Of a stretch of DNA of 64,000 nucleotides, positions 42,589 to 58,217 are shown one piece after another (positions within the stretch are counted from its first letter, which is position 1; every line of letters begins with the position of its first letter). Position numbers and translations under genes: made by a program. Origin of the DNA: Nitrospirota bacterium. GTDB taxonomy: Bacteria; Nitrospirota; UBA9217. The stretch covers positions 149,056 through 213,055 of the forward strand of contig CAWBNQ010000005.1 of NCBI GenBank assembly GCA_963790205.1, written 5' to 3'. The notes beneath the pieces are model-generated. The model saw nothing but the letters and a program-made list of their open reading frames with translations, had not been told where the DNA came from and made no database searches.

Positions 42589-43545
42589 TTGCCTTCTCAA
42601 TCCCCTATAATCCCATTCATGAAATCGCCACGGCGTTCCCTTGATCGCCTTATCGTCGGCATCACTTTCCTCATCCTGTTCTCTCCCTCAGCCGCGCTTG
42701 CCACGCCGGATTACGCGCGCCAGACCGGCCTCGAGTGCGGCCGGTGCCACATTGACGCCATCGGCGGCGGTCCGCTGACCCTGGCGGGGAAATCCTTTCT
42801 TGCCGACCTGAAGCTCAAGGGCCTCTACCGGCCTCTCACCACGGGCAGGAAGATCGTGCGTCTCGGCATCGGATATCTTCATCTCATGTCGGCGATCCTC
42901 TGGTTCGGTACGATCCTGTACGTGCATCTGCTCCTCAAGCCAGCCTACGCGTCCAAAGGCCTTCCCAAGGGTGAACTCCGGCTCGGATGGCTCTCGATGG
43001 TCGTCGTCCTGATAACGGGCGCGCTCCTGACCGTCGCCAGGGTCCCGTCCCTTGAAATGTTCTACACCACGAGGTTCGGCGTCCTGTTGAGCGTTAAGAT
43101 CTTCCTGTTTCTGGTCATGCTGTCGAGCGCGGCAGTCGTGACCCTTTTCATCGGTCCGAAGCTGAGAAGACAGAAGGCCCTCGCCTCCCCGTTCCAGGAC
43201 GGCGCCTGCACTCCTGATGGTCTCTGTCAATATGACGGCAGGGACGGACGTCCGGCCTATATCGCCTACAAGGGCATCATCTATGATGTAACGAAAAGCA
43301 AACTCTGGAAGAACGGCTCGCATGCGACGAAACACGCCGCCGGCAGGGACCTGACCGCCCTCCTGAAAACCGCTCCTCACGGAGAGGACAAGATCCTCTC
43401 CCTCCCCGAGGTGGGAAGGCTGCTCGCGACCGGAGAGAAGGCCGATAAACCCTTCCATTTGCGGCTCTTCTACTTCTTTGCATATATGAATCTCGTCCTC
43501 GTATTCGTGATCACCTTCGTCATTGCGCTCATGAGATGGTGGTAG
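42589..43545 (+). CDS. Membrane protein with an N-terminal CxxCH heme-c motif, a CopD-like TM region and a C-terminal cytochrome b5-like heme/steroid-binding domain
   Basis: CGRCH immediately after the signal/TM segment. Several TM helices follow. The C-terminal YIAYKGIIYDVTKSKLWKNGSH...AGRDLT matches the cyt-b5-like family pattern. Confidence 0.6.
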   Translation: MPSQSPIIPFMKSPRRSLDRLIVGITFLILFSPSAALATPDYARQTGLECGRCHIDAIGGGPLTLAGKSFLADLKLKGLYRPLTTGRKIVRLGIGYLHLMSAILWFGTILYVHLLLKPAYASKGLPKGELRLGWLSMVVVLITGALLTVARVPSLEMFYTTRFGVLLSVKIFLFLVMLSSAAVVTLFIGPKLRRQKALASPFQDGACTPDGLCQYDGRDGRPAYIAYKGIIYDVTKSKLWKNGSHATKHAAGRDLTALLKTAPHGEDKILSLPEVGRLLATGEKADKPFHLRLFYFFAYMNLVLVFVITFVIALMRWW

Positions 43546-43714
43546 GCTTTCCTCCGGAAAGAACAGTTAGAACGATTTAAACTGTTTAATCCGTTTAAAC
43601 GGAACTCTTCCCGCGCATTTCTTCATATGATACCCGTCATAACACCATCCCCTGATCCATGGTAGAATATCCACATACTAAAACAGACACCCCCTTTTCC
43701 AGAAAGGATGACCT

Positions 43715-44029
43715 ATGGACGTACTCGATCTCAAGAAGCTGATCAAGTTCAATCCCGACAAGATTTCCCGCGAGATGCTTTCCGACAAGCCGGAGATGCG
43801 CGTAGCGCTCATGTGCCTCAAGGCCGGTCAGAAGCTCGACCCCCATAAGGCGCCGCTCCGGCTCATGATGTACTGCGTCCAGGGAAAAGGCACCTTCACG
43901 GTCGGCGATGAGAAGATCGAAGCGGATGAGAAGACCTGCATTCTCTGCGACCCCTCGGTCCCGCACGGTTTTGACGCGAACAAAGGCTCGGACCTCGTGG
44001 TGCTGGCGATCGTGACGCCGGTGGAATAA
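43715..44029 (+). CDS. Cupin domain protein
   Basis: 104 aa with a cupin_2-like two-motif pattern (G.K.D.H.., G.G.F.VG). Confidence 0.6.
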   Translation: MDVLDLKKLIKFNPDKISREMLSDKPEMRVALMCLKAGQKLDPHKAPLRLMMYCVQGKGTFTVGDEKIEADEKTCILCDPSVPHGFDANKGSDLVVLAIVTPVE

Positions 44030-45914: not shown

Positions 45915-47087
45915 TCATAGATACTTCTCCAGCCGGTCCATCCTGAAATACAGAAGCAGTTCGACGAAGGACCGCGTGTGCACGGGGTCTTCGTTCATGC
46001 CGAAGAGATGCGTCTTGCAATCACAGTCCGATGAGCCGAAGTCCGGGATGCGCCAATCCGCTATCTTCCCGAGCGCCACTGCGATCTCGCATTCGAGATC
46101 ATCGCTCGAGCGGACTGGAAGAACAGCGTGAAAATCGGCGGCAGCCCGCAGATAGTCGATGTGCCAATGATAATTTTTAATGAGTCTTTTATGCCGCTCG
46201 ATGCGCTTCGTGAGATTTGCTTTGGCGGACCCGACGTAGAGATAATATCCTTTTCTGAACTTGACCTCGACCAGGCCGCCGATCGTGATTTCCCGATCAC
46301 GTTTTAACCTTATAATAAGGATATAACTCCCGCAGTCATGGGCCTCCTTCGCAACGAGATCCCACGGAATAACGAGGTCTCGTGCCGCGCCCAACAGCAT
46401 CCCCGGATTCCATTCAACGGAGACGGCCCTTACCATGACACTGTCCTTTATCGACAGGAGCGTGCGCGAGAACTCGAGGTCCGTGTGGTGTTCAGGCATG
46501 AAGTACTCAGCTCTGTGCCAGTGGATGAGAAATACCACGGCGGCTTTCAATCCCTTTCTTGCAAGACCGGCCAGTTCCAGAAGATGCTTCGTCCCCCGCG
46601 CCGTGACGGCATCAGGGAACATGGCGATATGGTTGCCTACGAGGGTGCAGGATTTGATCTCTACAACGATCTCCTCCCCGTCCCTGCTGACCAGGAAATC
46701 GAAGCGGCTGTGCCCGATCGTGATCTCCGGCCTGAGGATGGTCGCCCCTTCCAGACCGGGTATTCTTCCCTGTTCGATGAGCTGTTGCGCAACGAGGTTG
46801 TTTGCGTGAGTATGGAGCATGATCGGGATGCCGTCGCGCTCTACAGCAACAACCGTGTAATCCGTGCTCCTTTCGGAGGGCTCATTATGCTTGACGAGGG
46901 AGAGAACGGCCCCGGGAAAGAAAAGTTCCCAGAGCCTGCCCGGATTAGGAAGATATGCCCGTACGGTTTTCCTGTTGACCGTGCAGTGGACAATGAATCG
47001 GTTAGGCCTGTCAAGAAATGCGCCTTTATGAATAGCAGGGGAAGACGGAGAAGGGCTGAAGAAAGTATTATTGCCGCGGCTTACCAT
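45915..47087 (-). CDS. SfsA-family nuclease fused to a C-terminal GIY-YIG-like (DUF123-type) domain
   Basis: The N-terminal 250 aa match SfsA (FLDRPNRFIVHC..., a central OB/nuclease core). The C-terminal 140 aa carry a GSYILIIRL...GYYLYVGSA...RIERH...HWHIDYL pattern typical of GIY-YIG/DUF123. I place the start at ATG 47087. Confidence 0.7.
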   Translation of the reverse strand: MVSRGNNTFFSPSPSSPAIHKGAFLDRPNRFIVHCTVNRKTVRAYLPNPGRLWELFFPGAVLSLVKHNEPSERSTDYTVVAVERDGIPIMLHTHANNLVAQQLIEQGRIPGLEGATILRPEITIGHSRFDFLVSRDGEEIVVEIKSCTLVGNHIAMFPDAVTARGTKHLLELAGLARKGLKAAVVFLIHWHRAEYFMPEHHTDLEFSRTLLSIKDSVMVRAVSVEWNPGMLLGAARDLVIPWDLVAKEAHDCGSYILIIRLKRDREITIGGLVEVKFRKGYYLYVGSAKANLTKRIERHKRLIKNYHWHIDYLRAAADFHAVLPVRSSDDLECEIAVALGKIADWRIPDFGSSDCDCKTHLFGMNEDPVHTRSFVELLLYFRMDRLEKYL

Positions 47088-47173
47088 AGATGAACACGGA
47101 TGCTGCAAAGTTTCAGGAGAAAAAGCGACACGAAAGCGGAGCTTGCTGCTCTTGTTGAAGCGGAAATCCTTTA

Positions 47174-47614
47174 TCAGCAGGCGTCGTGTTGTCGCATGAC
47201 AAAGTCATGCACTTCCGCGAAGACCTCAAACCAATTTGCATCGGCAACGGATTCGATATTGGCCCCGATGAGGAAAGAACCGTTTTTTTCAACACAATGC
47301 TTTATGCGGGCGCCGAAAGAGACTTCTTTTGCCAACAATTGCGCGATGGAAATAATGCAATCGACGGAGGAATCTATGTCCAGCCGCACGGCACTCACGA
47401 ACAAGACCCCGCGCCGGCTGAAATTTCCGATGTCCACATGCTCGAAAGCATTGCCGGACCTGACTCGCAGCTTGACGTGCTGTTTGTACACGGCAGGCAC
47501 GTGGTATCGTTCGTCCACCCTCTTTTCATGAGAGTCCCCATCGCGGTTGGACGTTCGGTGACCTTTTTTCCCATGAGTCATGTGCTCCTCCGTGGGGTTA
47601 TCAAGTACTCCCAC
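47174..47614 (-). CDS. PilZ-domain (c-di-GMP-binding) protein
   Basis: An RxxxR motif (RVDER) followed by an (N)xSxxG motif (NFSRRG) at PilZ-like spacing. Confidence 0.6.
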   Translation of the reverse strand: MGVLDNPTEEHMTHGKKGHRTSNRDGDSHEKRVDERYHVPAVYKQHVKLRVRSGNAFEHVDIGNFSRRGVLFVSAVRLDIDSSVDCIISIAQLLAKEVSFGARIKHCVEKNGSFLIGANIESVADANWFEVFAEVHDFVMRQHDAC

Positions 47615-47803
47615 TGTATCCTTTTAGCAAACCTCGACAAAAACATCAAGTAAAAAAAACGGGGCAAAAGCGCATATCTCCCGTGTCAACTGCGGGGCGC
47701 GCGTCGAAGCGCAACAGGGAACCGGGTCAGAGAAAAGGCTTGCTCCAGCTCAGGTTCAACAAAGCATCGTCACGCAGGAACCGGACATACTGTCCACAGC
47801 GAA

Positions 47804-47841
47804 AAATAAAAAAGCCCTCGGATTATTCCGAGGGCTTTTTG
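47804..47841. terminator. Bidirectional rho-independent terminator after the octaheme cytochrome gene
   Basis: A-run, then a GCCCTCGG-attatt-CCGAGGGC hairpin, then TTTTT. Confidence 0.8.
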
Positions 47842-47857
47842 ACGCTCGATCTTTTTT

Positions 47858-49216
47858 CTAATTCGCTGTTGCCCCGCCGTACCGCTGATTGTAGAACTTC
47901 TGGATATTCTCGAGCTGTTCCTTGCTGATGCCCTTGATATACCAGTCATGCCGCTCATTGGGCTCAATGTATTTCTTGGTAATCTCGGCGTAGAGCTCCG
48001 GACCGGCCGCTTCCTTCACCTGGGGCAGGAACTCCGTATAAAAGTTCTTGGCCACCTCGTAGATGCCGTGCCACCAGGCATAATCCGGGCCCATCATGGC
48101 CGCGCCGTGACGCGCGCGCCTGCCTTCATGGTGCCACAACTCAAAATAGGTCCACTCCAGCTTGTTCGAATAATCATTCGGCTTGAGTTTTCCTTTGTCG
48201 ATCAGTTCCTGCCGGATCGCGGTGGCCGGTATTGCGAACTTGTCATTGTAGAAGTTCACAAAGTTGTCGAACTGATAATAGAAGGCGTCCACAAACGGTG
48301 AAGCATGGCAGCTGTTGCAAACGTCCTTCATGTTCTCACGCCTCTTGTCCGCGTTCTCCAGTTTCTTCGAAACAGGCGGCCGCAAGGTCCAGCTGATCCG
48401 CGCGCCCACGTCGTGCGTAACCGGCTGGTTCGGCGTTGCGCCCATGTGGCAGGTGACGCAGGTCGGCGCGGCGCTGTAGTCCCTGCCCACGACCCACGAG
48501 TCCTTGTGCATATTCATGCGGTCCTTGTTTGCCTCGTAGGCGATACCGTGCTTGGACTCCTGGTAGATCTCGATCTGCGGATGGTCGGGTCCGAGATGGC
48601 ACTTGCCGCAGGTCTCGGGCTCCCGCGCCTGGGCCTTCGAGAAGTTGTGCCGTTGATGACAGGCCGAGCAGGAGCCCTTGGAGCCGTCGGGATTGATCCG
48701 GCCGATGCCGGTGTTGGGCCAGGTGTTTTTGTCGATTTTCCCGTCAGCGCCGACCTTCACGATTCCGCCATGGCACTGGCGGCACCCTACGGTGACCGCC
48801 TCGGGACCGCCGACAACTTCACCGAGGTAATTGTCCAGGGAGTTGAGAACGTCCTGCGCTTTTGCATGATGGCTCTCGGTCATCTGCTTTTCTTCCTTGG
48901 CATGGCATTTTCCGCAGTCCTTGGGGGATACGATGACGTGGATCGTAAAACCGTTGTGCTCCATCGCGCCGGGGTCGCCCTTCTCAGACTTGTGGCAGGA
49001 AACGCAGTCCACACCCTTTTCTGCGTGTTTGCTCAATCTCCACTCCTGCACGAACGAGGGCGACTGGGCCTCATGACAGCTGATGCATGCCTGGCCTTCC
49101 TTTGAAATTTTTACCGCCGCCTTCCCTTTTGCGGCTTCACCCGGTGTCGTTGAGAGGGTCAGCGCCGCGCCGAACAAGAGTGCCGCCAGAACAATAAACA
49201 CAGCCTTCGTTCTCAT
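47858..49216 (-). CDS. Octaheme c-type cytochrome, HAO/epsilon-Hao-like (putative nitrite/hydroxylamine reductase family)
   Basis: Signal peptide. Eight CxxCH motifs (CISCH, CVSCH, CGKCH, CRQCH, CSACH, CGKCH, CVTCH, CNSCH) in 452 aa. A strong RBS precedes it. Confidence 0.7.
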   Translation of the reverse strand: MRTKAVFIVLAALLFGAALTLSTTPGEAAKGKAAVKISKEGQACISCHEAQSPSFVQEWRLSKHAEKGVDCVSCHKSEKGDPGAMEHNGFTIHVIVSPKDCGKCHAKEEKQMTESHHAKAQDVLNSLDNYLGEVVGGPEAVTVGCRQCHGGIVKVGADGKIDKNTWPNTGIGRINPDGSKGSCSACHQRHNFSKAQAREPETCGKCHLGPDHPQIEIYQESKHGIAYEANKDRMNMHKDSWVVGRDYSAAPTCVTCHMGATPNQPVTHDVGARISWTLRPPVSKKLENADKRRENMKDVCNSCHASPFVDAFYYQFDNFVNFYNDKFAIPATAIRQELIDKGKLKPNDYSNKLEWTYFELWHHEGRRARHGAAMMGPDYAWWHGIYEVAKNFYTEFLPQVKEAAGPELYAEITKKYIEPNERHDWYIKGISKEQLENIQKFYNQRYGGATAN

Positions 49217-49241
49217 CTTTGCCTCCTTTGTTTCCCAGGAT

Positions 49242-49787
49242 TTAGAACCAGTATTCGGGATATTTTCTGTTCTTTGAAAGGTTGTTCACGAGCAGGGCGA
49301 CGATCAAAAGGATGATCGCCCCGCTGCCAGCGGGAACGACAGAGTAGAAATAGCCGAGATTGTGCACCTTGGCCCCGCCTATGACGGCGATCAATGCCGT
49401 TGCGCCGCCGGGCGGGTGGAGCGTTTTGGTGGCGAGCATGGCGACAATGGCGAGCGAAACAGCCATGGCCGCGGCGATCCAGAGCGTGCCGCCGAAGAGC
49501 TGATAGCAGGCGACTCCCACAAGACCCGAGAGCATGTGCCCGCCCACCAGATTTCGCGGCTGCGCGAGGGGGCTCTTGATCGCGCCGTAGATCAGGACTG
49601 CCGAAGCGCCGAAGGAACCGATGAGCAGCGACAGGTCCCTGGGTTCGAAATAGCTGGACGACAGGAACCCGCATATTCCGATGCCGAGCGCGGAACCGAG
49701 CCAGGACCAGGCAAGCTCCCGGATGCCTACGCCCGGCGGGCTCTTCGCACTTCCCTTCATCTTGGAAATATATTCGGCTATGGTCAT
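49242..49787 (-). CDS. HPP-family membrane protein
   Basis: Four TM helices and the family-defining TLHPPGGATAL motif. Confidence 0.85.
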   Translation of the reverse strand: MTIAEYISKMKGSAKSPPGVGIRELAWSWLGSALGIGICGFLSSSYFEPRDLSLLIGSFGASAVLIYGAIKSPLAQPRNLVGGHMLSGLVGVACYQLFGGTLWIAAAMAVSLAIVAMLATKTLHPPGGATALIAVIGGAKVHNLGYFYSVVPAGSGAIILLIVALLVNNLSKNRKYPEYWF

Positions 49788-49878
49788 AGGTTATCAGAAC
49801 AAAGGCGGGGTAGGGAGCATTATCGCCCGCGCCCGGCGGCTTTTGTTCTCCCTCGTTTTTCGCCCCTCGCGAGCGTAT

Positions 49879-50472
49879 TCATGTCTTCCGTTTTTCTCCC
49901 ACGGAACGGATAATGTCTCCCCGGGAGATGATCCCCAGGAGCTTTCCTTCGGGACCAACGACCGGAAGCCTCTTGATGCGGCGCATGTCGAGAACAGCGG
50001 CGACCTCTTTAACGTCCGCGTCCGGCTCCGTGGTTACGGGAGGCGTGCTCATGACATCTGCCACGCGGTCGCCGTCCTTTCTCTTCGGCAGGGACTTTCC
50101 GAGCAGGCGCCGCAGAAGGCTCTTTGGCGTTCGTTCTTTTTTCGCTCCGGCCGGCGAAGGGATATCGGCTTCGGAAATGACGCCGATGACGCGGTCATTT
50201 TCATCCACCACGGGCATACCGCTGATCTTGTGCTCGGACAGGAGCTTCGCCGCTTCATGGACGCTCGTGTCCCCGGTGACACGGAACACCTTGCCGGTCA
50301 TCACGCTCTGGACCGGTATCATCGTGGAGCGGCGCTCCCGCGCGTGGCGGACGGCGAGGACATAGATCTTCATCAGGTCCTCCTCCGTAATGTCCACATA
50401 GGCCTTGAGCTCCACGAGGGCGGCCCGCAGGTCTTCTTCTGAAATTGAAGGACAGGCATTGCAGATTTCCAT
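49879..50472 (-). CDS. CBS-domain pair protein
   Basis: Two CBS motifs (MTGKVFRV...GMPVVDENDRVIGVISEADI and VMSTPPVT...RLPVVGPEGKLLGIISRGDI). I chose the start at ATG 50472, which has a GGAGG five nt upstream. Confidence 0.75.
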   Translation of the reverse strand: MEICNACPSISEEDLRAALVELKAYVDITEEDLMKIYVLAVRHARERRSTMIPVQSVMTGKVFRVTGDTSVHEAAKLLSEHKISGMPVVDENDRVIGVISEADIPSPAGAKKERTPKSLLRRLLGKSLPKRKDGDRVADVMSTPPVTTEPDADVKEVAAVLDMRRIKRLPVVGPEGKLLGIISRGDIIRSVGEKRKT

Positions 50473-50616
50473 AAGCCTCCGGTAAGAACACGGGCGCCAG
50501 AGCGCTGAAACGGCTTCGCGGGACAGCGGGCGCCCGAACGGTCTGTTTCGGAAGATAGTATAACGAAGAACGAAAAGAACCGGTATGACGAAAATCATAC
50601 CGGGCACGGCATCAGA

Positions 50617-51513
50617 TTATTTCTCTTTGTCCTCGGCCCGGGTCACGATCCAGAAGACAAAGCCGATGACGAGGATGGCGGCGATGAGGTAGTAAATGGA
50701 CTCCGGGTTTTCATGTTTCAACGTTGCGATCATGGTCTCCCGGATCATGGTCACGAGGGCCACGCCCACGAACACGCTGATATGGAACTTGCCGCCCTTG
50801 AGGTGGGATATTTCGGTGTTCATGAGTTCGATCATGAGCCAGAGCAACAGCATGGACCCCAGGGCGGAGATGATGCCCCGCTCCACGTCGCCGGAGAAGA
50901 GGTGCAGCACGTCCTGCACGAAGAGCCACACAACGCCCAGCGTGAGGCCGATGAGCGCGACGACGAGCAGGAGGTTGGTGGTCTGGGAGAACCATTCGGA
51001 AAAATTGATCAGTGCGCTCCTTACCTTATAAACGGGCGAAAAGGTCCTTAACTCCTCTTCGAGGTAGGAGGTCGTGATGACGTCGAGGCTGATGTCGAGG
51101 ATCTTGCCGACGGAGATGATCTGGTTGGTCGCCTCCACTTTGTCCGCTTCCTGTTTCTGCAGGAGGCCGATGCAGGCGTTCTTGACGAGGTTGACGGCCC
51201 TGTTCATATAGTGGGTATCAACGTTGTGCTTTACGTGGGCGGAGCCGATGCGGATAAGCTTTTCATAGTACCGGTTGTCGTACTTTCCCGAAAAAAGATC
51301 GATGAACCATTCGCGCTGGGACCCGAAGACGTGCTTTTTCCTCGATTCCTCGGTAAAGAACTGAGCAGCCCCCTTGGTCCCCATGATCCAGAGGCCGAGC
51401 GTGCTCATAATCTCGTCGGCGTGTTCTTCCATGAGCGGCCGCAGGCCCGCGAGACGCTGTTCGTCCTCTTCGGCAAACCGGTAATCGTGCTTGATCTCCC
51501 TGAACGATCTCAT
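50617..51513 (-). CDS. Protoglobin/globin-coupled-sensor-type globin domain fused to a PsiE-like membrane domain
   Basis: The N-terminal 165 aa show the sensor-globin pattern (W..LF.G.YD..Y...R..IG..H). The C-terminal 130 aa have about 4 TM helices resembling the phosphate-starvation-inducible PsiE family. GGAGG RBS. Confidence 0.6.
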   Translation of the reverse strand: MRSFREIKHDYRFAEEDEQRLAGLRPLMEEHADEIMSTLGLWIMGTKGAAQFFTEESRKKHVFGSQREWFIDLFSGKYDNRYYEKLIRIGSAHVKHNVDTHYMNRAVNLVKNACIGLLQKQEADKVEATNQIISVGKILDISLDVITTSYLEEELRTFSPVYKVRSALINFSEWFSQTTNLLLVVALIGLTLGVVWLFVQDVLHLFSGDVERGIISALGSMLLLWLMIELMNTEISHLKGGKFHISVFVGVALVTMIRETMIATLKHENPESIYYLIAAILVIGFVFWIVTRAEDKEK

Positions 51514-51589
51514 TGAGATTATATCCTCCTCTTAATTGTAGCACAGGAAAAAACCGTTCCCCGGGTACTCGGCAGTGCCGGCAGGCCGT

Positions 51590-52681
51590 TCAAAACACGT
51601 TCATTACCGCCGTTCCGTCCGCCACCAGGACTGCTTTTATCGCGTTCGTCGTTATCCCGACGGAAACAAGCCGAAGGTCGCGAATTTCCCCTCTGATGTT
51701 CATGTGCTGGTTTAAATTGCGGTTCAGCGCGCGGGAGAGGAGACCTTTTTCAGCGTCGATCCTGTCCCCGATAAACCACGCTGCCCGGTCCGCGAGACCC
51801 TCCCGAAGCCTGGTGTGCAGCAGCCAGTCGGCGGCTTGTATGAGGACCTGTTTCGTTTCAACCGTATATTCCGGATTTCGCACCATGAAGGACCGCGTCG
51901 TCTCGTCGTATGCCGGCACGCCGGTCAGGTAAACAGTGCCTTTGACCGTCCCTTTGACGCTTACCGCCATGACGATCGAACCGCCGGAGCCATACAGCCT
52001 CACTTTTTCAATGACGACGGTTTCACCCGGCGCGGAATAAGTTCTTCCTTCCAGTTTTTTCGTCAGCTCTTTTCCAAGAAAATCGAAGGACAGCTCGCTC
52101 TCGAGCGCAATATGAAAACCCGTTTCGGGCGGTACAGCGGTCATTGTTATCTCGGGAAGCGATTGCGCGGTCATGGGAACTGCCGTAACCGGAACAATCT
52201 TCGGCTTGAGATCAAATCCCACGACAACCGTCACCATATCGTCCGGCTTCGCCGGAGGTGAAACGTGGACCGCCTGGGGATTGAGCAGGAGAACAAGAGT
52301 ATCCTCCAGCCTGATCGGCGCCTGCAGGGATTCCCAGACCCTGGCTGCTTGTTGCCGCAGATAGCGGTTTTGCGCGAGATTATTATCTTTCTTTGACGCC
52401 TGCCTCCTGAGAAAATCCTGAATTTTCCCCGCGATGACGTTCTCCCGCCCCGTCCCGGCAGGTCCGGTATCTTTCGATAACAACTGGCCAAGATCGTCGA
52501 GGATTGATTTTACTGAAACCGTAATCGGCATGTTAATAGTGGATTTTTCAATGACCGGCTCAGCAATCGGCGTTGCGAAAGCTTCCGGGGCGGGAATGGT
52601 GAAGCGGGCGCACCCGTACATCAATGAACCGAACAAATACAGACCGACCACGGTTAACGTGCGTTTGGTATGGGTGAACAT
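51590..52681 (-). CDS. Putative lipoprotein of unknown function (DUF4403-like?)
   Basis: Signal peptide with a G-C lipobox-like site (LMYGC). 363 aa. I recognised no catalytic motifs. Confidence 0.45.
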   Translation of the reverse strand: MFTHTKRTLTVVGLYLFGSLMYGCARFTIPAPEAFATPIAEPVIEKSTINMPITVSVKSILDDLGQLLSKDTGPAGTGRENVIAGKIQDFLRRQASKKDNNLAQNRYLRQQAARVWESLQAPIRLEDTLVLLLNPQAVHVSPPAKPDDMVTVVVGFDLKPKIVPVTAVPMTAQSLPEITMTAVPPETGFHIALESELSFDFLGKELTKKLEGRTYSAPGETVVIEKVRLYGSGGSIVMAVSVKGTVKGTVYLTGVPAYDETTRSFMVRNPEYTVETKQVLIQAADWLLHTRLREGLADRAAWFIGDRIDAEKGLLSRALNRNLNQHMNIRGEIRDLRLVSVGITTNAIKAVLVADGTAVMNVF

Positions 52682-52963
52682 GGTGTTTTCTTGCCAGGGA
52701 GTATTTCGACGATACGGTGAATTGAGAACCGCCGGCGCACGGCGACTTTTCAGCGCATGATAACATTATAGCAGCCTTTTATCGGTTCAAATGTGTGAAG
52801 CGGCGGGTCAAGACAATTCAGAATATTTTGCGCCGATACCCTCAAAATACCCCGCCCGGGGTATGGATTTCCCCTTTGAATAATAGTATCATCGAACCAT
52901 AAAAAAAGGTGTAGACAGCAATCAATTGCCGTCTATCGAACGTCACAGGGGGGATGGTACACG

Positions 52964-53137
52964 ATGCCGCTGTTATTACAGGATGTTTTTCGCGAGGCGA
53001 TCGACAAGACCAAGCAGCTCGGGATGTGGGAAAAACTGACTATCAAGCAAAGAGAAGCGCTGGTGAGCAAATATCTTCTGGAATACTACAACAAAAAGCG
53101 CAGCCCCTTGAAAGCCGCTGTAACCGCCGGCTACTGA
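52964..53137 (+). CDS. Small hypothetical protein (57 aa)
   Basis: ATG preceded by a G-rich RBS-like stretch. It is not in the ORF track because it is under 60 aa. Its coding status is uncertain. Confidence 0.25.
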   Translation: MPLLLQDVFREAIDKTKQLGMWEKLTIKQREALVSKYLLEYYNKKRSPLKAAVTAGY

Positions 53138-54427: not shown

Positions 54428-55261
54428 TCACTTCGGCACGTCCCGGAGAATGCTCTTGATATCTCTATTATCGTATTGTTCCCTTCTCCATCGGTACGGC
54501 AGATCGATGATCGTACCCGGCTCCTGTATGACGTACAAAGCGCGCAATGCTTCCGCCAGTACGACCCGCTGCTGCGCTGTTTTGAACGGCTCGCCCAACG
54601 GATGGCCGAAAGGCCATCTCAAAAAAACGGTCCTCGGCGGCCTCACCTTCTCCGAATATTGCCGCACGATCGAGACGCCGATCGTGGGGATCCCTGATTT
54701 TTCAATTTCCCGCTGTATCAATCCCACGGATTGATTGCAGATGCCTCATCCGGGAGTAAGCAGGACGATATCGACGCAGTCGTTTTTCAACGCTCGTGCG
54801 ATCTCGGGCGCGTTCCTATCGACCAGTGTCGGGATGTGCCTGCCTACTATGTGTCCCATGAAACTGTAATGACGGCCTGCGACACGCCCAATGAGCCCTT
54901 CCTGTTCGAATTCCCTCAGTCTTTCCACGGGAAAAACGATGTTGATGTCCTTATCGGCATCGGCATGATCATAGTAATCGTGGGTGATCATCAGGTCCGA
55001 GGCCGGCCTTCCCAGGTCGATGGCCCGATAAGACGGATCGCCCTCGTGGTCTTTCATGTCGAAAGGTTCCTGGTCTTTTTGATGAACCCCCGCCGTTGTC
55101 ACGACCGCGATTGTTGATTCAGAGAGGGCCTTTGTTACCGGGGTCCAGGGAACATCAAGGGATTGCCGCGGATCGTAGGCGGCAATGAATCTCTTTGCGA
55201 GCGAGGGGAAGCGGGTAATAACTTTTGAGATCAGTTTATTTTTTAGTCTGTCGATGCTCAT
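54428..55261 (-). CDS. GrdB/PrdB-family reductase selenoprotein B-like protein, with selenocysteine encoded by in-frame TGA (minus-strand codon at 54746-54748)
   Basis: The two track ORFs (54746..55261 and 54428..54727) are in the same frame and separated only by TGA. Read-through gives ...VDIVLLTPG-U-GICNQSVGLIQREIEKSGIPTIGVSIV, a U-x-x-C redox motif. The flanking sequence parallels the PrdB/GrdB Sec region. A SECIS-like hairpin lies 11 nt downstream. Confidence 0.7.
54717..54735 (-). promoter_or_regulatory. Putative bacterial SECIS hairpin for the GrdB/PrdB-like selenoprotein
   Basis: The mRNA has an AUCAAUCC-GUG-GGAUUGAU stem with 8 perfect base pairs. It starts 11 nt 3' of the UGA, and its apical loop contains G and U. 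Confidence 0.5.
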
Positions 55262-55836: not shown

Positions 55837-57156
55837 TTACGCTCTGGCCTTTGCCAGTCTGAAAAAATCAATGAGGAACATCACCACTCCGGCGGCAAAT
55901 CCCCACGCTGATACCCAGAACACGGCGTACCACAGCTTCATATATCCCTGCGTCGTGAGGTAGTCCATGCCGAGCACCCTCTGGAAATAGACCTGGACGA
56001 TGCCGGCGATGGCAAGGGAGAGCGCCATCAGCGCCATAAAGGAGCACATGAACCAGAAGGCCTTGGTCCCGAGCGACTGCCTGAAGGTCGTGAGTCCTTT
56101 TAATTGCGGCATGACGAAATAGATCAGCGTGAGATTCAGCATGGCATAGGCGCCGAAGAATGCGAAATGCCCGTGCGAGGCCGTCACCTGCGTGCCGTGG
56201 GTCCATTGGTTGATCTGCGGGAGCGTATGGGCGAAGCCCCAGACGCCGGCGCCGAAAAAGTGCATGACCGCGCACCCGACCGCCCAGGACAAGGCGACCT
56301 TGTTCGTGATCTCCAGTTTCCGTTCCCGCACCACGCGAAGCGTGTCGATCACCATAAAGAGGATGGGAAGCGGTTCAAAAGCACTGAAGATCCCGCCCCA
56401 CCAGAGCCAGTAGTTCGGCGTGCCGATCCAGTAATAGTGATGCCCCGTGCCCACGATGCCCGTGAACAGCACGAGGCCCACCTCGACATAGAGCCACTTC
56501 TCGACCAGCGCCCGGTCAACGCCCGTTAGTTTCATGAGCATAAAGGCCATGATCGCGCCGGTGACAAGCTCCCATGCTCCTTCCACCCAGAGGTGTATCA
56601 CCCACCACCACCAGAAGTACTGGGTTGCCAGGTTCTTCATGAAGAAAACGCCGAAGAGGAACATGCCCGCGAGCATGACCAAGCCTCCCAGGAGGACCCC
56701 CTGGATCACGGTCCATTTTTTTGTCTTCATCATGGTCATGAAGATGTTGTAGAGAAAGATCAAAGCGACAAGTACGATGCCGAATTTAAGGATTGTCGGC
56801 TGCTCCAGGAAGGGCATGCCCCACGTCCAGCCAAGGAAGTAGCCCACGATGGCCGCGACGCCGATAAGCGCGAACAGGATGAGTTGGAAGTTCGCCAGCT
56901 TCTTGCTGTAGATCTCGGTCTGCGCCTCTTCCGGGACAAGGTAGTACGTCCCTCCCATGAACCCGAAGAGAAGCCAGACCACGAGAAGGTTTATGTGGAT
57001 GGCCCGCGCGGTGTTGAACGGCAGGATATTGATGAGCGGGTCATAGTCCCATACGTACTTGGCGCCCATGATCAGGCCGAAGACGACCTGGAGCCCGAAG
57101 AGCAGCGCCGCGACGATAAAGTAGTTTAACGCGATCTTCTGTGATTCGTATTTCAT
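55837..57156 (-). CDS. norB: Nitric oxide reductase large subunit (heme-copper oxidase superfamily, cNOR NorB-like)
   Basis: 439 aa with 12 TM helices and conserved His ligands (HHYYWIG, THGTQVTASHGHFAFFGAYA) typical of NorB. Confidence 0.85.
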   Translation of the reverse strand: MKYESQKIALNYFIVAALLFGLQVVFGLIMGAKYVWDYDPLINILPFNTARAIHINLLVVWLLFGFMGGTYYLVPEEAQTEIYSKKLANFQLILFALIGVAAIVGYFLGWTWGMPFLEQPTILKFGIVLVALIFLYNIFMTMMKTKKWTVIQGVLLGGLVMLAGMFLFGVFFMKNLATQYFWWWWVIHLWVEGAWELVTGAIMAFMLMKLTGVDRALVEKWLYVEVGLVLFTGIVGTGHHYYWIGTPNYWLWWGGIFSAFEPLPILFMVIDTLRVVRERKLEITNKVALSWAVGCAVMHFFGAGVWGFAHTLPQINQWTHGTQVTASHGHFAFFGAYAMLNLTLIYFVMPQLKGLTTFRQSLGTKAFWFMCSFMALMALSLAIAGIVQVYFQRVLGMDYLTTQGYMKLWYAVFWVSAWGFAAGVVMFLIDFFRLAKARA

Positions 57157-57201
57157 CTCATTCCTCCTTATCGCAGTCCTGCGAGATAGTGCGCAAGGTC
57201 G

Positions 57202-57840
57202 TCAACGTCCTTTTTGGAAAGCCTCGAAAAGCTCCGGCATAATGGACTGAGGGTTGTGCGATTTCGGGTTCCTGAGCTGCGCCTCGATCCATTCGGTGTC
57301 GCGTCTTCTGCCGACCTGGGACAGGTCGGGCCCTACTTTGCCGCCCACGCCGGCGATCATGTGGCATGCGGAGCACCCCTGGGCCTTATAGACCGCCTCG
57401 CCCGGGGTGACGGAGGTCACTGCCGACGCCACCATGGGTTTCGGGGGCCAGTTGTTCGTGTCGATGCCGTTCACCCAGGTGAGGAACGCGACGAGATCGG
57501 CGATCTCTTCGTCCTTGAGACCGAGGTTCGGCATCTTTCTCGCATTCGGCCAGACCTTCTCCGGGTCCTTCAGGAACCTCGCGACCCATTCGTTGTCCCG
57601 GTAGCTCATGACCTTGGTGACGTCGGGGGCGTAGTAGCCGCCGATGCCGAGGATCGTGTGGCAGTCGTTGCAGTTATGCTTCTGCCACACCCACTTGCCC
57701 GCCGCAACCTGTGCGTCCAGCTTTTCTTCGTGCGTTCTCTGCGGCATCTTCACCAGAGAATCATACGTGAGGACAAGAAAGATTATCGCCGATATCGCGG
57801 TGCCCCAGATAAAAATTGCCTTCCCCTGTGCGAGTGTCAT
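57202..57840 (-). CDS. norC: NorC-like cytochrome c subunit of NO reductase with an extra C-terminal mono-heme cytochrome c domain (di-heme)
   Basis: The N-terminal 150 aa align with NorC (TM anchor, CNDCHTILG, IDTNNWPPKP). The C-terminal extension carries a second CSACH motif with a class-I cyt c pattern. I place the start at ATG 57840 (MTLAQ), which has an AGGGAGA RBS. Confidence 0.75.
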   Translation of the reverse strand: MTLAQGKAIFIWGTAISAIIFLVLTYDSLVKMPQRTHEEKLDAQVAAGKWVWQKHNCNDCHTILGIGGYYAPDVTKVMSYRDNEWVARFLKDPEKVWPNARKMPNLGLKDEEIADLVAFLTWVNGIDTNNWPPKPMVASAVTSVTPGEAVYKAQGCSACHMIAGVGGKVGPDLSQVGRRRDTEWIEAQLRNPKSHNPQSIMPELFEAFQKGR

Positions 57841-57920
57841 TGCTTCTCCCTTCTTCAATGATATGATTATCCTGTCCAAGGACTGCAATAAATACTTTTA
57901 CAGGCATTAGGGCTCATGCA

Positions 57921-58079
57921 TCAGACCTTTTCGAACATGTCCTTGCCTGCGCCGCAGACCGGGCATACCCATCCATCGGGTATCTTTTCGAATGGCGTCC
58001 CCGGCGCAATGCCCCCGTCCGGGTCTCCTGTTGCGGGATCATAGATCCAGTCGCATACCGTGCACTTCCACTTGTCCAT
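57921..58079 (-). CDS. Rubredoxin
   Basis: [15 protein letters not shown]...[11 protein letters not shown] is the classic two CxxC(G) rubredoxin knuckles. I place the start at ATG 58079, which has a GGAGG RBS. The track ORF carries a spurious N-terminal extension. Confidence 0.88.
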
Positions 58080-58217
58080 GAAACCTCCGAAAAAAAACAA
58101 TTGATTTCTATATAGATAGATTATGGCCAGTAAAGGCCCAAGCAGGAAATTCAAGGAACGAACAACATCGTAGTATTTCCAACTATAGCACAAGAAATAG
58201 GCAGTTTGTTGGGCGAT

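Follow-up and report, generated by a model that had tools for sequence, protein, structure and literature searches.

Genes and features of the locus

A 64 kb stretch of DNA from a Nitrospirota bacterium (hereafter, the window) carries at 47858-51513 four co-directional minus-strand genes, which encode, in transcription order, a protoglobin-PsiE fusion (globin-PsiE), a protein with a CBS pair, an HPP-family membrane protein and a secreted octaheme cytochrome c. A preliminary description had treated them as one tightly spaced operon for the handling of nitrogen oxides. All four open reading frames lie where that description had placed them, and its domain calls were upheld by Pfam. We compared the locus with two sets of relatives: 80 metagenome loci centred on the HPP gene (70-88% identity, 545 kb in total) and 80 genome loci centred on the cytochrome gene (54-85% identity), from Nitrospirota, Desulfuromonadales, NC10 and other groups. 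The loci closest to the window are from Nitrospirota metagenome-assembled genomes. The following features, listed in transcription order, make up the region.

51535-51543, minus strand: predicted sigma-70 promoter of globin-PsiE with an extended -10 element, TGcTACAAT (from its sequence and from relatives)
50617-51513, minus strand: globin-PsiE gene, a membrane-anchored sensor globin of the GsGCS type, 298 aa (Pfam and match to 2w31)
50584-50599, minus strand: putative operator palindrome TATGA-N6-TCATA (TATGA box), a perfect match, between globin-PsiE and CBS
50557-50562, minus strand: predicted -10 hexamer TATACT, 21 nt 3' of the box (from its sequence and from the spacing in relatives)
49879-50472, minus strand: stand-alone CBS-pair gene, 197 aa (Pfam CBS; start taken from the orthologue in the related locus L081)
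49242-49787, minus strand: HPP gene, a four-helix membrane protein, 181 aa (PF04982)
47858-49216, minus strand: gene of the secreted octaheme cytochrome c of the HAO/IhOCC clade, 452 aa (eight CxxCH motifs and PF13447)
47809-47840, minus strand: intrinsic terminator of the CBS-HPP-cytochrome unit (14-pair stem and T-tail)

The mechanically called open reading frame of the CBS gene spans 49879-50607 and begins with GTG. We preferred the ATG at 50472 (MEICNAC...), which is also the start of the L081 orthologue. The intergenic gaps are then 144, 91 and 25 nt in transcription order, so that only the HPP-cytochrome junction is tight and the close spacing first attributed to all four genes does not hold. 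A GGAGG-type ribosome-binding site, likewise attributed to each of them, precedes three; none was seen upstream of the HPP start codon (ATG at 49787). The terminator at the end of the unit proved as genuine as described, its 14 stem pairs (47840-47809) being flanked on both sides by an A-run and a T-run, and an Rfam scan of 47000-53000 returned sub-threshold matches alone, all of them on this terminator.

A conserved palindrome ahead of the CBS-HPP genes

The 144-nt gap between globin-PsiE and CBS holds GGTATGATTTTCGTCATACC, which a consensus scan scores as terminator-like (10-pair stem, T-rich tail). When this gap was compared in 29 loci, the half-sites TATGA and TCATA were found to be fixed while the six spacer bases vary, with no covariation, which argues for a protein-binding palindrome rather than an RNA stem. 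We therefore rejected a terminator reading of the hairpin (50603-50580), whose stem is invariant without covariation and whose site recurs before many genes. In about 20 loci, the box directly follows the globin stop codon. The HPP-centred loci contain 59 perfect TATGA boxes, against about 0.5 expected in 545 kb, and among all palindromes of the form 5-N6-5 this one ranks first, with a runner-up at 13 and a median of 0.

In 32 loci, CBS is preceded by a perfect box at a distance of up to 260 nt, and in every one of them the box is followed by a hexamer of the form TAnnnT, at a spacing of 21 nt in 23 loci, of 22 nt in 8 and of 18 nt in 1. In the window, the position of the -10 hexamer predicts a start site near 50550, which puts the box centre at -41.5; the CBS promoter shows neither a -35 hexamer nor an extended -10. 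Box and -10 hexamer together have the geometry typical of a class II promoter activated by a CRP/FNR-type factor, and the palindrome is the predicted operator driving CBS-HPP-cytochrome. We also considered an operator of the NsrR type, with which the half-sites share ATG/CAT, but rejected it because the spacing is off by 3 bp (PMC1274295).

The globin-PsiE gene is probably read from a sigma-70 promoter of its own. The motif TGTGnTACAnT occurs just 5' of the ribosome-binding site in seven relatives (L096, L100, L123, L128, L133, L135 and L162), several of which add a TTGACA -35 element. Since the 144-nt gap shows the signals of a promoter and an operator, and globin-PsiE those of a promoter of its own, the region is best read as at least two transcription units and not as one operon. 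A gene for a DUF4403 lipoprotein-like protein (51590-52681, minus strand) lies 76 nt upstream of globin-PsiE; it is found at this place in L165 and L166 too, and is absent from it in most HPP-centred loci.

A single box stands before CBS-HPP-cytochrome in the window, L166 and L081, and in the last of these it has been kept though the globin gene is gone. In L165, one box precedes the cytochrome gene alone and another precedes CBS-HPP.

Conservation of the gene order

The CBS gene is directly upstream of HPP in 63 of the 64 HPP-centred loci that reach far enough, globin-PsiE is directly upstream of CBS-HPP in 24 out of 44, and the cytochrome gene follows HPP in 2 out of 38. None of the 80 cytochrome-centred loci has CBS-HPP upstream of the cytochrome in the same orientation; two have it within 10 kb on the opposite strand. 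The order CBS-HPP-cytochrome is common to the nearest relatives only. One example is L081, where the cytochrome is 94% identical and all but about 55 nt of the 3' end of the globin gene has been lost.

Even relatives whose globin is 90-95% identical carry a permuted gene order. In L165, the cytochrome gene comes directly after globin-PsiE; CBS-HPP is 5 kb distant, and cydAB and the genes for an Rrf2 regulator and a peroxiredoxin come in between. In L166, the same cydAB-Rrf2-peroxiredoxin block separates globin-PsiE from CBS-HPP-cytochrome. L087 has no cytochrome gene at this place, and its HPP gene adjoins the gene that lies downstream of the cytochrome in the window. The arrangement of four genes that had been put forward as a unit is thus not conserved as such, close relatives included: CBS-HPP is the stable core.

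Some of the surrounding genes recur as well. The block in L165 and L166 (9.4-13 kb), which is not found in the window, is encoded on the opposite strand and in L166 also comprises genes for two hemerythrins and an HD domain protein. Directly 3' of the terminator, the window encodes a 146-aa protein without a Pfam match (47174-47614, minus strand), which keeps this place in L081, L083 and L087. At 45915-47108 (minus strand), the window encodes SfsA (OB and nuclease-like domains) fused to DUF123, an orthologue of which is encoded downstream of the module in L106, L130 and L157.

Genes behind the box and their nitrogen-oxide neighbourhood

Across the HPP-centred loci, the box precedes CBS-HPP about 35 times. 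The other genes found behind it are norC of norCB, nrfA, the genes for a cupin and for a NapH-like iron-sulfur membrane protein, a gene for a Cys-rich protein and a gene of the DUF1858/ScdA_N type. Stand-alone cytochrome genes can carry the box as well: of 39 close relatives (at least 67% identity), 18 have a perfect copy no more than 470 nt upstream of the gene, and of 39 distant ones none does. As both the cytochrome gene and CBS-HPP carry the box in relatives, we regard them as putatively co-regulated partners despite their fluid gene order.

The window contains exactly two perfect boxes and no sites with one mismatch. The second box and the neighbouring genes that bear on the nitrogen-oxide theme are the following.

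43626-43641, plus strand: second perfect TATGA box, upstream of the cupin gene and followed after 21 nt by a -10-like TAGAAT (43663-43668)
43715-44029, plus strand: cupin gene (104 aa, Cupin_2), a probable member of the regulon
42589-43545, plus strand: gene of a CopD-cytochrome b5 membrane protein with an N-terminal CxxCH (Pfam CopD and Cyt-b5), beside the cupin gene
57921-58079, minus strand: rubredoxin gene
57202-57888, minus strand: gene of a NorC-like cytochrome c
55837-57156, minus strand: gene of a NorB of the cNOR type

The cupin family adjoins HPP in 14 related loci, with a box before the cupin gene in L090, L121, L131 and L151, and the CopD-cytochrome b5 family occurs in 8 related HPP loci, beside cupin and NorB. 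The best solved match of the window's NorB is the Pseudomonas cNOR (chain 3o0r_B, E-value 1.5e-125). The rubredoxin-NorC-NorB cluster (55837-58079) is real, as the preliminary description had it; the distance to it, given there as 6 kb, measures 4.3 kb when taken from the start of the globin gene and 6.6 kb when taken from that of the cytochrome gene. In many relatives, norC and norB adjoin globin-PsiE, CBS-HPP or both, on the module's own strand where they lie upstream of it and convergent with it where they lie downstream. Other recurrent neighbours are an NrfA with a CxxCK motif, the cupin, the NapH-like protein, the CopD-cytochrome b5 protein and a PAS histidine kinase encoded upstream of the globin.

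Around the rubredoxin gene, we noted an extended -10-like sequence, TGTGCTATAGT, at 58180-58200 (minus strand, upstream of the gene), similar to the element before globin-PsiE. The ABC permease gene that lies upstream of rubredoxin contains a weak box with two mismatches, which we attributed to chance.

A second HAO-like octaheme cytochrome, about 29-34% identical and with a C-terminal anchor, is encoded directly upstream of CBS-HPP in L124 (3701-4999), L134 and L144. L120 yielded no CBS match, and there the second HAO-like octaheme is encoded directly before HPP. HPP is thereby associated a second, independent time with an enzyme of the HAO family. The neighbourhood supports a nitrogen-oxide theme independently of the operator. 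Of the nitrogen-oxide module first proposed, the link to nitrogen oxides is consequently supported by the shared operator and the neighbourhood; the gene order lends it no support.

The octaheme cytochrome

The cytochrome carries eight heme-binding motifs (C44/47/H48, C71/74/H75, C101/104/H105, C145/148/H149, C183/186/H187, C203/206/H207, C253/256/H257 and C300/303/H304) behind a Sec-type signal peptide that, read off the sequence, has no lipobox Cys. Pfam assigns it to Multi-haem_cyto (PF13447). Its best solved relative is IhOCC (4qo5), with an E-value of 1e-46 for the single sequence and 3e-74 for a profile of 16 sequences; HAO matches follow at about 1e-20 (sequence) and about 1e-38 (profile). 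After IhOCC, the profile matches Kustc0458, NeHAO, KsHAO and HDH at 1e-29 to 1e-39.

Neither the sequence nor the profile matched a chain of MccA, OTR or ONR at an E-value of 1e-3 or below, and the sole hit among MccA, OTR, ONR and NrfA was a marginal one to NrfA (8e-4 over 60 residues). MccA and OTR have their catalytic heme in an N-terminal module, and ONR and NrfA have a CxxCK motif. All eight motifs of the window's cytochrome are CxxCH. On these comparisons, the cytochrome is assigned to the HAO/IhOCC clade and not to MccA, OTR or ONR, in keeping with the family first suggested for it.

The comparison also covered the two active-site features that the preliminary description had named. Residues D211-H212 (CGKCHLGPDH) align with the distal catalytic pair D267-H268 of NeHAO (CATCHSGVDH) and are invariant across 16 diverse relatives. 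In the oxidative P460 enzymes NeHAO, KsHAO and HDH, a Tyr is cross-linked to the catalytic heme of the adjacent subunit. To locate this Tyr, the C-terminal sequence of NeHAO (405-503) was checked against 4fas; Tyr467 lies in HVGLAHVNPGGWTYTEGWG. In three MAFFT modes, the column of this residue is occupied by an invariant Trp382, with Phe in IhOCC and Trp in Kustc0458, and the alignment around it is near-gapless and anchored on both sides by a conserved Gly. A first manual alignment had set Tyr379 opposite Tyr467 of NeHAO and was dropped in favour of this one, anchored on the two glycines.

The C-terminal helix region of the cytochrome aligns only with the solved cross-link-free reductive enzymes IhOCC and Kustc0458. 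For profiles of the C-terminus against oxidative HAOs, the alignment stops short of that region and hhalign gave no significant result. Because of the Trp at the Tyr467 position and of the C-terminal alignment with cross-link-free enzymes only, we classify the cytochrome, at sequence level, as a reductive-type HAO homologue. Both IhOCC and Kustc0458 are reductive members of the HAO family that lack the cross-link (PMC8042395; PMC9250108), and such cross-link-free HAOs reduce nitrite, nitric oxide (NO) and hydroxylamine (PMC8042395, PMC9250108).

The family is very large: at least 8,000 candidates pass an E-value of 1e-10, for many of which JGI gives the annotation hydroxylamine dehydrogenase. 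It is often encoded as a stand-alone gene, in varied contexts, in metal- and sulfur-respiring Desulfuromonadales, and no neighbour is conserved across the cytochrome-centred loci. A pentaheme selenoprotein polysulfide reductase (PMC13510729) was considered as an alternative function and rejected as belonging to a different family.

The CBS pair and the HPP protein

The HPP protein matches TM_HPP (PF04982) over its full length (E-value 2.9e-59, profile positions 3-157 of 157), as had been expected of the 181-aa protein, and has the motif His124-Pro125-Pro126. Pfam finds two CBS stretches in the CBS protein (4.6e-29). A tie between HPP and CBS pairs, also expected from the outset, is seen in P0302, a natural CBS-HPP fusion protein whose domain order is the same as the gene order. 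The window's CBS protein is 37% identical (E-value 3e-30) to the N-terminal half of P0302, its N-terminal helix region included, and this likeness supports a physical complex of CBS and HPP, in which the CBS protein would probably be the cytoplasmic regulatory partner.

By analogy, HPP may serve as a channel or transporter for nitrite. Family members from cyanobacteria and plastids are nitrite transporters (Maeda 2014, as cited in PMC7438415). Two HPP genes are up-regulated in Kuenenia under nitrite limitation (PMC7438415), and in Desulfovibrio desulfuricans NO induces an HPP gene that neighbours hcpR1 (PMC5701242). Since the HPP gene adjoins those of dissimilatory periplasmic reductases, export or bidirectional flux appears more plausible than uptake.

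The globin-PsiE protein

The first protein of the region combines a Protoglobin domain (residues 4-154, 2.1e-23) with a four-helix PsiE domain (176-294, 3e-23), whose helices would hold the globin at the membrane as a heme sensor domain on the cytoplasmic side. The best solved match of its globin domain is GsGCS of G. sulfurreducens (2w31, E-value 2.6e-30), gap-free over residues 3-158. The fusion is therefore an already described class: 168 members of the GsGCS globin-PsiE class have been reported, and it has been structurally studied and has no known function (PMC8076648). The report on GsGCS mentions neither an operon or neighbourhood nor HPP or CBS (PMC8076648).

Globin-PsiE is strongly conserved, with at least 82% identity over the 120 clusters listed. 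Searches for exact copies of the window's globin and HPP proteins returned no record. In Nitrospirota, the proximal His93 is invariant, as are Trp42 and His61. Position 66 is Gln in all 120 of the close relatives listed and His in 9 of 10 GsGCS-like sequences, and the Tyr40 of GsGCS is replaced by Ser or Gly. In GsGCS, the distal His66 (E11) gives a bis-histidyl heme (PMC8076648). Given Gln66 in place of His66, Ser or Gly in place of Tyr40, and the invariant Trp42 and His61, the ligand chemistry of the Nitrospirota globin should differ from that of GsGCS. Extending the comparison to Geobacter, a search with the GsGCS globin domain retrieved only 10 mostly fragmentary proteins and a single usable contig, which had no informative neighbours.

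Other genes in the window

A gene for a GRDB/PrdB-like reductase (54428-55261, minus strand) has an in-frame TGA (...LLTPG-TGA-GICNQ...) within a U-x-x-C motif. It probably encodes one selenoprotein of 277 aa rather than the two open reading frames of 171 and 99 aa; the L165 counterpart has been called as 171 and 100 aa. The first part of the window (1-36500) encodes glycosyltransferases, methyltransferases, an O-antigen ligase-like protein, an acyltransferase and a sugar transferase, which form an unrelated lipopolysaccharide/polysaccharide cluster.

Proposed role and alternative explanations

We propose that the four genes form two units of a gene set for nitrogen-oxide stress or respiration in anaerobic Nitrospirota, a reading to which we assign a probability of about 0.55. 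In this proposal, an NO- or nitrite-responsive activator would switch on the genes behind TATGA boxes together, from promoters with the geometry of those activated by CRP/FNR-family regulators such as HcpR, Dnr or NnrR, the most likely inducing signal being NO or nitrite. HPP would act as a channel for nitrite, with the CBS pair gating it from the cytoplasmic side, and would most likely let nitrite that has entered, or formed in, the cytoplasm out to the periplasm, protecting cytoplasmic targets; exit seems more plausible than import because the linked reductases are all periplasmic and no cytoplasmic nitrite reductase is encoded nearby. In the periplasm, the cytochrome would reduce nitrite, NO or hydroxylamine alongside cNOR. 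Globin-PsiE, made constitutively, would act with the module as a membrane sensor or scavenger for NO or O2. A more specific version, which we offer tentatively and hold to be possible more than probable, is that globin-PsiE would be a membrane NO (or O2) sensor working physically with a CBS-gated HPP nitrite channel, and that the two, with the TATGA regulon, would constitute an undescribed nitrosative-stress system.

Several observations weigh against the proposed role. No gene for a CRP/FNR regulator was detected in the window or the loci by tblastn with E. coli CRP and FNR, and Pfam scans of 20 further open reading frames of the window returned lipopolysaccharide/polysaccharide genes, TetR and methyltransferases and no CRP/FNR protein. 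The box matches no published HcpR, DNR, NnrR or NsrR consensus (PMC1274295), and the factor could be a repressor of another family, an Rrf2 gene being nearby in relatives. The window's norCB cluster has no TATGA box before it, unlike norC in several relatives, and the island in relatives also carries genes for cytochrome bd oxidase, peroxiredoxin, hemerythrin and rubredoxin. Within the HPP family, the members demonstrated to carry nitrite are all distant ones, from cyanobacteria and plants. Globin-PsiE is dispensable for the rest of the set in L081. As to the cytochrome, a conserved Tyr379 lies three residues before Trp382, so that the absence of the cross-link rests on a short alignment, and no electron donor of the NapC/NrfH type is among its 25 most widely shared neighbour families (ranked by number of loci).

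The main rival holds that the TATGA regulon and the island respond to O2 or to general redox stress, with a globin that senses O2 and with the NorB-like oxidase, the cytochrome and HPP serving in defence against O2 and reactive oxygen species. The genes for bd oxidase, peroxiredoxin, hemerythrins, rubredoxin and the Rrf2 regulator in the island of relatives would fit such a role, boxes of the CRP/FNR type classically report anaerobiosis, and globin-coupled sensors commonly bind O2. The boxes, however, stand before nrfA, norC, HAO-like, DUF1858/ScdA_N-type and CBS-HPP genes, and none precedes the cydAB, peroxiredoxin or hemerythrin genes of L165 and L166. Given that the window's NorB is closest to bona fide cNOR and that HPP genes of two other organisms are responsive to NO or nitrite (PMC5701242, PMC7438415), we consider an O2 or redox role rather doubtful. 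A different partition of the genes, which we find unlikely, would make CBS-HPP a membrane signalling module or a module for another solute (an adenylate-sensing regulator or a channel for some other small anion), with globin-PsiE as its true partner and the reductases co-regulated for other reasons. Globin-PsiE does adjoin the pair in 24 of 44 loci, the HPP family has been characterised experimentally in cyanobacteria and plastids only, and uptake of nitrite would be pointless with periplasmic reductases alone and no cytoplasmic nitrite reductase near. Speaking for nitrite, it is specifically enzymes converting nitrite and NO with which CBS-HPP is associated and co-regulated time and again, and HPP genes elsewhere answer to nitrite or NO (PMC7438415, PMC5701242).

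The operon originally envisaged, in which one promoter upstream of globin would serve all four genes for periplasmic detoxification of nitrite and hydroxylamine, is quite improbable. The genes are co-directional, end at one strong terminator and have nothing on the opposite strand, and read-through from the globin promoter could occur, as the palindrome is not obviously a strong terminator. Against a single promoter stand the conserved operator and -10 in the 144-nt gap, the retention of CBS-HPP-cytochrome and the box in L081 after loss of the globin gene, the 5 kb of genes on the other strand that interrupt the set in L165 and L166, and the adjacency counts (cytochrome after HPP in 2/38 loci, CBS-HPP before the cytochrome in 0/80). 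We give very little credence to the palindrome being a mere RNA hairpin that terminates or attenuates the globin-PsiE transcript, with the cytochrome as an unrelated neighbour engaged in metal or sulfur respiration. The terminator-like score, with its 10-pair stem and T-rich tail, would suit such a hairpin, and the wide stand-alone occurrence of the family in metal- and sulfur-respiring Desulfuromonadales would suit such a cytochrome. A hairpin accounts poorly for a fixed stem sequence with a variable loop and no covariation, for the same sequence before many genes that have no globin upstream (the window's cupin gene among them), for the fixed spacing to the -10 hexamer, and for the survival of the site in L081 without the globin gene.

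Implications and comparison with known systems

Three of the four protein families lack an established bacterial role: globin-PsiE, HPP, for which nitrite transport is inferred, and the cross-link-free HAO homologues, which are widespread in anaerobes. The shared operator ties the genes associated with globin-PsiE, CBS and HPP to norCB and nrfA, which gives two families of membrane proteins a first physiological context and makes the function of these orphan families directly testable. If the more specific version of the proposal is true, it would provide the first physiological role for membrane-bound globin-coupled sensors and for bacterial HPP proteins. The shared operator also bears on how sulfate- or sulfur-reducing Nitrospirota cope with nitrite in soils, sediments and aquifers, and on whether nitrogen is kept as ammonium or lost as gas.

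Among regulatory systems, the closest likeness is to HcpR, whose CRP-like box TGTGA-N6-TCACA is a 5-N6-5 palindrome like the TATGA box (PMC1274295). The regulons of HcpR, Dnr and NnrR share with the TATGA set the nor, nrf and ScdA_N-like content and, going by the predicted -10 hexamer, the class II position. The differences are the half-site, TATGA, and the presence of CBS-HPP, the HAO-like cytochrome and the cupin, which fall outside the described core regulons.

The cytochrome resembles IhOCC in its eight CxxCH hemes in the HAO arrangement, its Asp-His pair and a non-Tyr aromatic residue at the Tyr467 position; it is about 70 residues shorter and lacks the long insertion of IhOCC. Compared with Kustc0458 (HAOr, 6h5l), no diheme partner is found among the 25 most widely shared neighbour families of the cytochrome. 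With epsilon-Hao, the reductive HAO of Campylobacterota, it agrees in size (452 aa), in heme count and in the missing Tyr. What sets the cytochrome of the window's lineage apart from IhOCC, epsilon-Hao and HAOr is its predicted transcription behind CBS-HPP.

The window's HPP has the full-length PF04982 match and the HPP motif in common with the NITR2-type proteins of cyanobacteria and plastids, but it pairs with a separate CBS protein and its gene adjoins those of dissimilatory periplasmic reductases instead of assimilatory genes. Globin-PsiE has the two-domain architecture, the length and the proximal His93 of GsGCS. It differs at position 66, where an invariant Gln replaces the His66 of the bis-histidyl coordination, and in the linkage of its gene to CBS-HPP and norCB.

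Each component thus belongs to a known family, and nitrogen-oxide regulons under CRP/FNR-type factors are well known, so that the system described here extends a known principle rather than introducing a new one. What appears to be new is the putative TATGA-N6-TCATA operator with its regulon content in Nitrospirota, the recurrent globin-PsiE/CBS/HPP module and the distinct distal pocket of this subgroup of globins.

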